Below are positions 26,819 to 28,075 of a DNA stretch of 64,000 nt, piece by piece. The stretch is taken from NCBI RefSeq assembly GCF_044647545.1, contig NZ_CP172818.1; one strand, written 5' to 3'. Both the position numbers and the translations under genes were made by a program. The notes beneath the pieces were generated by a model. The model did no database searches and was not told the DNA's origin. It worked only from the letters and a program-made list of their open reading frames with translations. Each line of letters starts with the position of its first letter. The stretch's first letter is position 1. This stretch comes from Escherichia coli. GTDB taxonomy: Bacteria; Pseudomonadota; Gammaproteobacteria; Enterobacterales; Enterobacteriaceae.

Positions 26819-28075
26819 ATGTTCCGCCGTCTGCTTATCGCAACAGTCGTCGGTATTCTCGCGGCCTTTGCCGTTGCCGGGTTTCGTCATGCAATGCTGC
26901 TACTGGAGTGGTTGTTCCTCAATAATGACTCCGGCAGTCTGGTCAATGCAGCGACAAATCTTTCCCCATGGCGACGGCTGCTAACTCCGGCGCTCGGCGG
27001 ACTGGCGGCGGGTTTGTTGCTGATGGGCTGGCAGAAATTTACCCAGCAACGCCCTCATGCGCCGACCGATTACATGGAAGCGTTGCAAACCGATGGTCAG
27101 TTCGATTACGCAGCAAGCCTGGTTAAATCGCTTGCCTCTCTGCTGGTAGTAACCAGCGGCAGTGCAATTGGTCGCGAAGGTGCGATGATTCTTTTAGCTG
27201 CCCTTGCCGCCTCCTGTTTTGCCCAACGTTTTACGCCACGCCAGGAGTGGAAATTATGGATCGCCTGTGGAGCTGCGGCGGGAATGGCTGCGGCCTATCG
27301 CGCCCCGCTTGCTGGCAGTTTATTTATAGCCGAAGTGCTGTTTGGCACTATGATGTTGGCCTCTCTCGGCCCGGTGATTATTTCCGCCGTCGTGGCGTTG
27401 CTGGTTAGCAATCTGATTAATCATAGCGACGCGTTACTCTACAGCGTACAACTCTCAGTGACGGTTCAGGCTCGTGACTATGCGCTGATTATCAGTACAG
27501 GTGTGCTGGCAGGTCTGTGCGGACCACTGTTGTTAACGTTAATGAACGCCTGTCATCGTGGATTTGTAAGTCTCAAACTTGCGCCGCCCTGGCAACTGGC
27601 ACTGGGCGGGTTGATCGTGGGTCTGCTTTCCCTGTTCACACCTGCAGTGTGGGGCAACGGCTATAGCACCGTACAATCCTTTTTAACCGCCCCGCCACTG
27701 TTAATGATCATTGCCGGGATCTTCCTCTGTAAACTGTTTGCCGTGCTGGCGAGTAGTGGTTCTGGCGCGCCCGGTGGTGTCTTTACACCGACGCTATTTA
27801 TCGGTCTTGCCATTGGCATGTTGTATGGTCGTAGCCTGGGATTATGGTTCCCTGATGGCGAAGAAATTACGCTTTTACTCGGATTGACCGGGATGGCGAC
27901 ACTGTTGGCGGCAACCACGCACGCGCCGATTATGTCGACGTTGATGATATGTGAAATGACCGGGGAGTATCAGCTACTCCCCGGTTTATTGATTGCCTGC
28001 GTAATTGCGTCGGTAATTTCGCGGACGTTACACCGTGACTCTATCTACCGCCAGCACACTGCGAAGCATAGCTAA
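26819..28075 (+). CDS. clcB: ClC-family voltage-gated chloride channel
   Basis: 418 aa from [18 protein letters not shown] selectivity motif. Confidence 0.9.

Follow-up and report, generated by a model that had tools for sequence, protein, structure and literature searches.

The clcB–ynfK convergent overlap of Enterobacteriaceae and a likely ynfK transcript-end hairpin within the clcB coding sequence

Introduction

The convergent genes clcB and ynfK of Escherichia coli share the last 48 nucleotides (nt) of their coding sequences (CDSs), and the sole new point of the present analysis is that a hairpin, which likely marks the end of the ynfK transcript, sits within the coding sequence of clcB. 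The locus is described here in a 64,000-nt stretch of E. coli DNA (contig NZ_CP172818.1 of RefSeq assembly GCF_044647545.1), which is referred to as the window and whose numbering is used throughout. The overlap itself is genuine, yet the public annotation has it already, and it is hence not new. For the end of the ynfK messenger RNA (mRNA), the explanation that we favor, and which we regard as moderately probable, combines termination by Rho beyond the ynfK stop, trimming of the RNA and protection of its 3' end by the embedded stem-loop. The coordinates of the features are collected in Table 1.

Geometry and conservation of the overlap

The sequence-only reading of the window had reported that the last 16 codons of clcB and ynfK overlap in convergent orientation over 48 nt, and the open reading frame (ORF) list, the sequence and the RefSeq annotation all agree with it. 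The genes are arranged in the window as ynfFGH-dmsD-clcB on the plus strand, followed by ynfK-mlc-ynfL on the minus strand, and an identical overlap is annotated in RefSeq for a genome identical to the window and for a K-12 derivative. In MG1655, clcB occupies 1665315..1666571 and bidA/ynfK occupies 1666524..1667219. While PGAP names the latter gene bioD, its MG1655 name is bidA (b1593), with the product 'dethiobiotin synthetase BidA' in NC_000913.3; no paper explaining the renaming of ynfK as bidA was found in the literature searched. The clcB-ynfK locus is carried by 5420 of the 5426 complete E. coli genomes. Both products belong to known families: ClcB is assigned to PF00654, with ClcA structures matched at E 1e-26, and YnfK to PF13500, with BioD structures matched at E 5e-65 over YnfK residues 3-220. 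The two frames lie in the antisense phase (123:321), in which codons are aligned with position 2 opposite position 2 and with positions 1 and 3 opposite each other; each TAA stop is therefore a TTA Leu codon of the partner gene.

The comparative survey covers 80 loci with ClcB relatives, one genome per species, for which both stops were recomputed; per-site conservation figures refer to the 70 Enterobacteriaceae species with the overlapping pair. The overlap measures 27-66 nt in these 70 species. The length of 48 nt is found at 38 loci, among them the window and the RefSeq E. coli loci L001 and L002, and extends over Escherichia, Klebsiella, Raoultella, Kluyvera, Pluralibacter, Pseudocitrobacter, Cedecea, Buttiauxella and other genera. 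An overlap of 45 nt characterizes Citrobacter and Salmonella (16 loci), one of 66 nt Enterobacter, Leclercia and relatives (15 loci), and one of 39 nt the single locus of Raoultella terrigena. Two loci, from E. coli E69 (L025) and Superficieibacter electus (L056), overlap by only 27 nt owing to an earlier clcB stop right after the conserved SIY(H/R), from which the last ~7 residues of ClcB look dispensable. The ynfK stop occupies one and the same codon throughout the 70 overlapping species, and YnfK is 231 amino acids (aa) long in nearly all orthologs and in 93 of the 120 homologs listed. The clcB stop shifts between genera and lies one codon earlier in Citrobacter and Salmonella and six codons later in Enterobacter. 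In the overlapping pairs, each stop sits within the frame of the partner without an earlier in-frame stop, as recomputed over a set of 75 loci. Checked against orthologs in this manner, both stops are real and the arrangement is conserved across Enterobacteriaceae; clcB and ynfK are a genuine convergent overlapping coding pair, in which both protein families are conserved and the overlap is shared across species.

The convergent pair also occurs without an overlap, with a gap of 44-86 nt at four loci of Yersinia and of 10 nt at one locus of Hafnia. In these genera, ClcB ends 2-4 residues past a conserved tyrosine and YnfK ends near its BioD-like C-terminus. Since the pair is non-overlapping there and has shorter ends, the overlap represents a derived state and not an artefact. 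An earlier stop in orthologs, which the sequence-only reading had taken as the mark of an annotation artefact, is thus absent within Enterobacteriaceae and seen only in the non-overlapping Yersinia and Hafnia loci. In the ancestor, clcB and ynfK would have been parted by a short spacer, as they are now in Yersinia and Hafnia. This spacer, together with both ancestral stops, would have been lost in the lineage leading to Enterobacteriaceae, most simply through one deletion; by alignment with Hafnia, the ancestral stops would have been adjacent at ~28055-28060. Following their loss, each ORF would have extended through the antisense of its partner to the next stop. Four further loci contain clcB without a downstream ynfK, i.e., L047 (Enterobacteriaceae UBA7338), L051 (Escherichia sp. 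ESNIH1), L067 (Trabulsiella) and L071 (Leminorella), and the ClcB tail of ~8 residues past the conserved tyrosine persists in all of these clcB-only species.

A conserved hairpin within the clcB coding sequence

A GC-rich stem-loop is found in the minus-strand RNA 42 nt downstream of the ynfK stop, within the 3' untranslated region of ynfK. It is made of clcB codons 381-389, which encode the peptide T-G-E/Q-Y-x-L-L-P-G, and the conserved core of its stem comprises 9 base pairs (bp). The hairpin of K-12 is identical to that of the window, and the single-sequence fold for E. coli has a z of -4.29. When the 103-nt minus-strand alignment that starts at the ynfK stop is folded with RNAalifold, the 9-bp stem is the only structure (-16.3 kcal/mol). 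An RNAalifold scan of 27878-28723 gives the hairpin -16.4 kcal/mol on the minus strand versus -5.8 kcal/mol on the plus strand, and no other scanned segment of this range, on either strand, is better than -9.0 kcal/mol.

The codons that build the stem are frozen in a manner that is not typical of the rest of clcB. The Pro codon is CCC in 70/70 species (clcB baseline 24%), the Thr codon is ACC in 69/70 (38%), and the Gly codon is GGG or GGA in 69/70 (37%). Additionally, Leu CTC always accompanies Glu (GAG/GAA), and Leu CTG accompanies Gln (CAG/CAA), such that across species GAG pairs with CTC and CAG pairs with CTG in the stem. This gives one covarying pair, which is CG in 37 species, GC in 26, UG in 3 and broken in 4. 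Paired cells make up 92.3% of the alignment, as against 21-44% when the partner is slid, and none of 500 column shuffles, a control that ignores phylogeny, matches the observed pairing or covariation score.

The pairing is asymmetric with respect to the strand. In 52 cells from several genera, the pair is a G.U wobble in the minus-strand RNA and a C.A mismatch on the plus strand, while the reverse is seen in ~1 cell. The minus-strand wobbles stem from synonymous G-to-A changes on the plus strand (GGA, CAA, GAA and the outer-pair GGC), and the changes that would wobble on the plus strand only (C-to-T: ACT, CCT, TTG) are nearly absent, with 1 cell. The stem is also restricted in its distribution. 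Yersinia and Hafnia form only 3-5 of the 9 Watson-Crick pairs despite the same peptide (MTGEYTLLPG), with free codon choice, and three clcB-only Enterobacteriaceae that were checked retain 7, 7 and 8 of the 9 pairs. In the related clcB-only loci L047 and L051, two independent changes each have occurred at otherwise frozen sites, and the hairpin codons are drifting. Because the wobbles are almost confined to the minus strand and the stem is absent or decays where there is no overlap, the stem is tied to the overlapping ynfK and to the minus-strand RNA. A search of Rfam at the hairpin returned chance-level matches only, all far under the gathering scores. The spacers of Yersinia and Hafnia contain no conserved terminator; their folds differ among species, and none is shared.

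How ynfK transcripts end

The sequence-only reading had held that the overlap leaves no room for terminators between the genes. This is literally correct, as there is zero intergenic DNA; it is incomplete, however, because a minus-strand hairpin lies in clcB and Rho termination takes place ~10 nt past the ynfK stop. Signals for 3' ends can sit inside the partner gene, and with no intergenic DNA available, those of ynfK lie inside clcB. The same reading had implied antisense transcription of each gene into the other, which necessarily holds for at least 48 nt each way; published support exists for transcription of ynfK into clcB only.

This support comes from the Rho termination regions of Adams et al. 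(2021, eLife, Supplementary file 2, PMC7815308), in which the region at MG1655 1666514 has a score of 4.21 (p = 1.5e-6). The reads upstream/downstream of this position number 85/11 without bicyclomycin and 292/159 with it (PMC7815308). Mapped onto the window, the position lies 10 nt past the ynfK stop. In the 800-nt window over ynfK itself (~28018-28818 on the minus strand), bicyclomycin lifts the reads ~3.4-fold, from 85 to 292, which suggests that Rho also limits transcription into or within ynfK, e.g., read-through from the upstream mlc.

At steady state, Rho-dependent transcripts of E. coli possess precise 3' ends, located immediately behind stable stem-loops that lack a U tract; such stem-loops shield the RNA from PNPase and RNase II and are closely followed by rut sites (Dar and Sorek 2018, PMC6061677). 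The ynfK hairpin resembles these stem-loops in that its minus-strand tail, CAUUUCACA, contains 4 U in 9 nt and no U tract. Intrinsic terminators are expected to have at least 5 U in 8 nt, and the corresponding tail, CAUUUCAC, has 4 U in 8; the terminator scan reported no minus-strand terminator at the hairpin. Beyond the hairpin, a moderately C-rich and G-poor stretch may serve as a rut site (Table 1), with C/G of 1.57-1.79 in 78-nt windows at offsets of 130-156 from the ynfK stop, compared with 1.15-1.35 elsewhere in the first 260 nt.

Rho terminates the untranslated antisense-clcB RNA past the ynfK stop, as the published data show; it is proposed that 3'-5' exonucleases would then trim the ynfK RNA back, and that the embedded stem-loop would set and protect the 3' end of the mature mRNA. 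This is the most likely role of the hairpin in view of its conservation, its asymmetry between the strands and the rule that generally holds for Rho-dependent transcripts, and the stem-loop is provisionally placed among the protective stem-loops of Rho-dependent terminators.

Protein tails and selection within the overlap

The alignment of YnfK with BioD stops at YnfK residue 220, which corresponds to the last BioD residue, 224; residues 221-231 of YnfK are therefore an extension. On the ClcB side, the alignment to 1kpl matches ClcB 5-411 with ClcA 36-446 and places the invariant Tyr410 of ClcB at ClcA Tyr445, the central chloride-coordinating tyrosine. In AlphaFold2 models, the confidence score pLDDT falls from 90 (residues 211-220) to 49 (residues 221-230) in YnfK and is <50 for ClcB 408-418, where the ClcB model is mediocre overall (mean 71); the underlying alignments are shallow (17-18 sequences), and the models of both tails are not relied on.

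Per-site entropies display a clcB-type periodicity upstream of the overlap, where third positions are free. A mainly clcB-type pattern continues over 28031-28057, with L404, R405, D407, S408, I409, Y410 and H413 conserved; both frames are relaxed over 28058-28078, and a ynfK-type pattern begins at 28079. The YnfK tail hence overlies the conserved ClcB end, and the last ~5 variable residues of ClcB overlie the end of the last helix of YnfK. The overlap is cheap, in that almost no base is under strong constraint from both proteins, and it is tolerated because stops are rare in this phase and because the end of the partner over which each tail runs is weakly constrained.

Stops in this antisense frame require TTA, CTA or TCA in the sense frame, and these make up 4.1% of the codons of clcB and 3.4% of those of ynfK. 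Since they are rare in both genes, a run of 15 antisense codons without a stop has a chance of about one half (P = 0.54-0.59). The overlap's length thus lies within chance expectation, and it is the conserved arrangement and the position of the ynfK stop across genera that exceed chance. Such a length agrees with the stop-codon-mutation model, from which the observed distribution of phases among the convergent overlaps of E. coli is recovered and in which the phase (123:321) accounts for about one third of them (PMC2174442). The openness of the antisense frame in clcB is illustrated by a rare YnfK variant of 347 aa (P0024, NCBI source), in which the normal end is lost and ~116 residues run antisense to clcB; the extension corresponds to ~27680-28030 on the minus strand of the window, and its tail resembles an 85-aa antisense ORF at 27661-27918.

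The position of the ynfK stop leaves a mark on clcB. The clcB codon opposite the stop, Leu404, is TTA in 57/70 species and CTA in 13/70, with zero entropy at codon positions 2 and 3; TTA and CTA together account for 14% of clcB Leu codons overall, and neighboring synonymous sites are saturated. Yersinia and Hafnia, in which the genes do not overlap, have TTG, TTA, TTG, ATA or CTG at the homologous codon. These counts show that the position of the ynfK stop is under purifying selection, which forces clcB Leu404 to be TTA or CTA. Loss of the stop would add 14 residues to YnfK, and the selection on its position argues that translation proceeds down to it. Short E. coli variants of YnfK were considered as proof that the tail is dispensable and were set aside as uninformative, as they result from frameshifts or from deletions within the gene, with the normal tail retained.

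Weighing the explanations

Several points weigh against the reading of the locus given above. The origin of the overlap in a single deletion is an argument from parsimony and not a demonstration. The conservation of the YnfK tail (VDR..A) is inseparable from the shadow of ClcB: the conserved 'VDR' is the antisense of the ClcB 'SIY', amino-acid entropies over 28031-28057 are similar in both frames, the driver of conservation is not separable, and there is room for a function of the tail itself. The sole covarying pair of the stem could reflect one event, in which E changed to Q with CTC changing to CTG. With respect to termination, the Rho score has a coarse resolution, being based on 800-nt windows, and the downstream/upstream ratio under bicyclomycin is still just 0.54; read-through is also curbed by a factor besides Rho, perhaps decay or a weak intrinsic termination. 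The enrichment in C past the hairpin is modest and, with C/G of 1.15-1.79 over ~200 nt, suggestive without being distinctive. Finally, no mapped ynfK 3' end is present at the hairpin in the tables of Adams et al. or TERMITe, and none for either ynfK or clcB appears anywhere in Supplementary files 1, 3 and 4 of Adams et al. or in TERMITe. The gene ynfK is reported to be directly activated by FNR (PMC3688515), and the missing ynfK 3' end is probably due to this activation and to poor aerobic expression.

In a rival explanation, the hairpin is itself the terminator, acting either as a weak intrinsic terminator or as a collision-type overlapping bidirectional terminator. The GC-rich stem of 9-11 bp is suited to such a role, the plus-strand version of the inverted repeat within clcB (27958-27986) was flagged by a simple terminator scan, and the ynfK signal still falls by about half across the site when Rho is inhibited. 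Furthermore, pausing at hairpins together with head-on collisions of RNA polymerases is described as ending transcription of convergent pairs in which canonical terminators are missing (bioRxiv 10.1101/2022.10.23.513370). However, the minus-strand tail is poor in U, and the scan detected its terminator on the plus strand only, where it lies 88 nt before the clcB stop and would truncate clcB. Pairing is kept only for the minus-strand RNA, and the sensitivity of termination to bicyclomycin is documented. Termination by the hairpin alone is consequently considered unlikely.

The retention of the overlap as a regulatory device, in which FNR-induced ynfK and clcB would antagonize each other, by convergent transcription or through an mRNA duplex of at least 48 nt, as in an excludon or by transcriptional interference, appears less likely still. 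The overlap has been kept through the whole history of Enterobacteriaceae, the transcripts of the FNR-activated ynfK enter clcB in antisense, and the excludon concept has been reviewed (PMC7154746). Against this, the overlap has drifted in length over a range of 27-66 nt, antisense read-through is reduced by Rho to ~13%, and the hairpin points to a read-through that is restricted and not put to use; the stop-codon-mutation model, moreover, already accounts for convergent overlaps and their phases (PMC2174442). No paired expression data linking clcB and ynfK were found. An elaboration of this idea, in which the ynfK end signal was rebuilt from clcB codons once the spacer had gone, the conserved overlap couples both genes and an FNR-driven antisense RNA, gated by the hairpin and Rho, tunes ClcB anaerobically in an excludon-like manner, is a similarly long shot.

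That the palindrome acts on the plus strand, in the translation or stability of the clcB mRNA, or as DNA, with no relation to ynfK, is very improbable. The element does lie within clcB, and the E. coli core stem forms with 9/9 Watson-Crick pairs on either strand. Nevertheless, the excess of pairs that wobble on the minus strand and mismatch on the plus strand, the far weaker consensus energy of the plus strand, the decay of the stem in 2/3 of the clcB-only species and its absence from Yersinia and Hafnia, which possess clcB with the same peptide, all speak for the minus-strand RNA; as to the variant at the level of DNA, a hairpin in single-stranded DNA of the minus strand is formally possible. 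The last explanation, an annotation artefact in which one gene truly ends earlier and no overlap exists, could appeal to the shorter Yersinia and Hafnia orthologs and to the many long overlaps in databases that are misannotations (PMC2478687), but it is refuted at the sequence level and has practically no probability left, since stops are not predictions, neither the window nor 70 other species contain an earlier in-frame stop, the locus recurs in 5420 E. coli genomes with both proteins in known conserved families, and Pallejà et al. hold that convergent overlaps are the only ones that can be genuine (PMC2478687).

Table 1. Features of the clcB-ynfK locus in the window
Feature	Position	Strand	Remarks
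clcB CDS, CLC-family chloride/proton transporter	26783..28075	+	ORF list, RefSeq; PGAP start 26783 gives 430 aa
ynfK (= bidA) CDS, 231 aa, BioD (dethiobiotin synthetase) paralog	28028..28723	-	ORF list, RefSeq
clcB/ynfK coding overlap, 48 nt	28028..28075	both	15 sense codons and the stop of each gene
ynfK stop TAA	28028..28030	-	clcB Leu404 TTA on the plus strand; sequence, ORF list
clcB stop TAA	28073..28075	+	ynfK Leu217 TTA on the minus strand; sequence, ORF list
YnfK residues 221-231, 11-aa extension past BioD homology	28031..28063	-	antisense to conserved clcB codons 405-415
clcB Tyr410 codon	28046..28048	+	Y in 70/70 species; aligned with ClcA Tyr445
GC-rich stem-loop in minus-strand RNA	27959..27985	-	11-bp stem in E. 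coli, 27959-27969 with 27975-27985
Rho termination region, peak at MG1655 1666514	28018	-	Adams et al. 2021, 'primary: ynfK; antisense: clcB'
Possible rut site, moderately C-rich and G-poor	27794..27897	-	weak evidence; beyond the hairpin

The 3' end and the start of clcB

No conserved structure that could serve the 3' end of clcB was detected within ynfK, where the best RNAalifold result on the plus strand is -3.8 kcal/mol. The single-sequence fold past the clcB stop has a z of -0.03, and ynfK displays no trough of synonymous variation beyond scattered single codons. A T6 run at ~28151-28156 was rejected as a clcB signal, because it consists of Lys-Lys codons of ynfK and the tract is not conserved. 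A C-rich, G-poor stretch of the plus strand is present at 28255-28385, 180-310 nt past the clcB stop, with C/G of 1.5-2.15; judged by its composition, it could let Rho load onto clcB read-through transcripts, and a role of Rho at the 3' end of clcB is plausible too.

At the other end of the gene, the MG1655 record starts clcB at 26819 (418 aa), and an upstream ATG lies 36 nt earlier, at 26783. This ATG is invariant in 80/80 loci, Yersinia and Hafnia included, and the 12 codons between the two starts, with the consensus MHRLHAYPD(I/L)RA, have codon periodicity, whereas the sequence ahead of the ATG lacks conservation. In 6 loci, Leu or Ile takes the place of the 'M' at 26819. The start is probably mis-set in the MG1655 record, and the 430-aa model of PGAP is favored.

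Relation to known systems

The clcB-ynfK pair belongs with the conserved convergent overlaps, in which genes on opposite strands likewise share their 3' ends and which arise through loss of stop codons (Rogozin et al. 2002, as cited in PMC2478687; Lillo and Krakauer 2007, PMC2174442; Pallejà et al. 2008, PMC2478687). Within the class that is explained by mutation of stop codons, the phase (123:321) makes up about a third of the convergent overlaps of at least 5 nt, and the ORFs of clcB and ynfK likewise reach the next antisense stop. Unlike most of the putatively real long convergent overlaps of Pallejà et al., which are found only in very close species, the clcB-ynfK overlap is family-wide. 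It also differs in that it extends up to 66 nt in Enterobacter and in that sister families still display the ancestral arrangement with a spacer.

With the Rho-dependent ends of the type described by Dar and Sorek (PMC6061677), the ynfK end shares bicyclomycin-sensitive termination past the stop, a stable stem-loop without a U tract and, to a modest degree, RNA beyond it that is richer in C than in G. The difference is that the ynfK stem-loop is embedded in the coding sequence of the convergent gene and built from its codons. Overlapping bidirectional terminators (Ju et al. 2019, as described in bioRxiv 10.1101/2022.10.23.513370) are similar with respect to a convergent pair that lacks canonical intrinsic terminators and a hairpin that is transcribed from both sides; however, the ynfK hairpin precedes the clcB stop by 88 nt, cannot serve clcB and keeps its pairing for one strand. 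Excludons (PMC7154746) are also formed by neighbors on opposite strands with transcripts that are complementary over their 3' parts, but the antisense read-through at clcB-ynfK is short and is curtailed by Rho.

Significance

The overlap itself is textbook material that the annotation already contains, and as an original finding, it is of low importance. The locus is, nonetheless, a clean example of how convergent overlaps originate, as the ancestral spacing persists in Yersinia and Hafnia, and of the low cost at which they are maintained, as the part of the partner protein that each tail covers is its weakly constrained end. It also shows how a gene without an intergenic region may keep its 3'-end signal in the codons of its neighbor, here apparently by means of Rho and an embedded stem-loop. 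On the practical side, 'synonymous' recoding or deletion of the 3' end of clcB could alter the expression of ynfK/bidA unintentionally. If the proposed role of the hairpin is true, the structure of an antisense RNA would constrain the evolution of a membrane transporter, through the frozen Pro, Thr and Gly codons and through the matching of Glu and Gln by Leu CTC and CTG, respectively.

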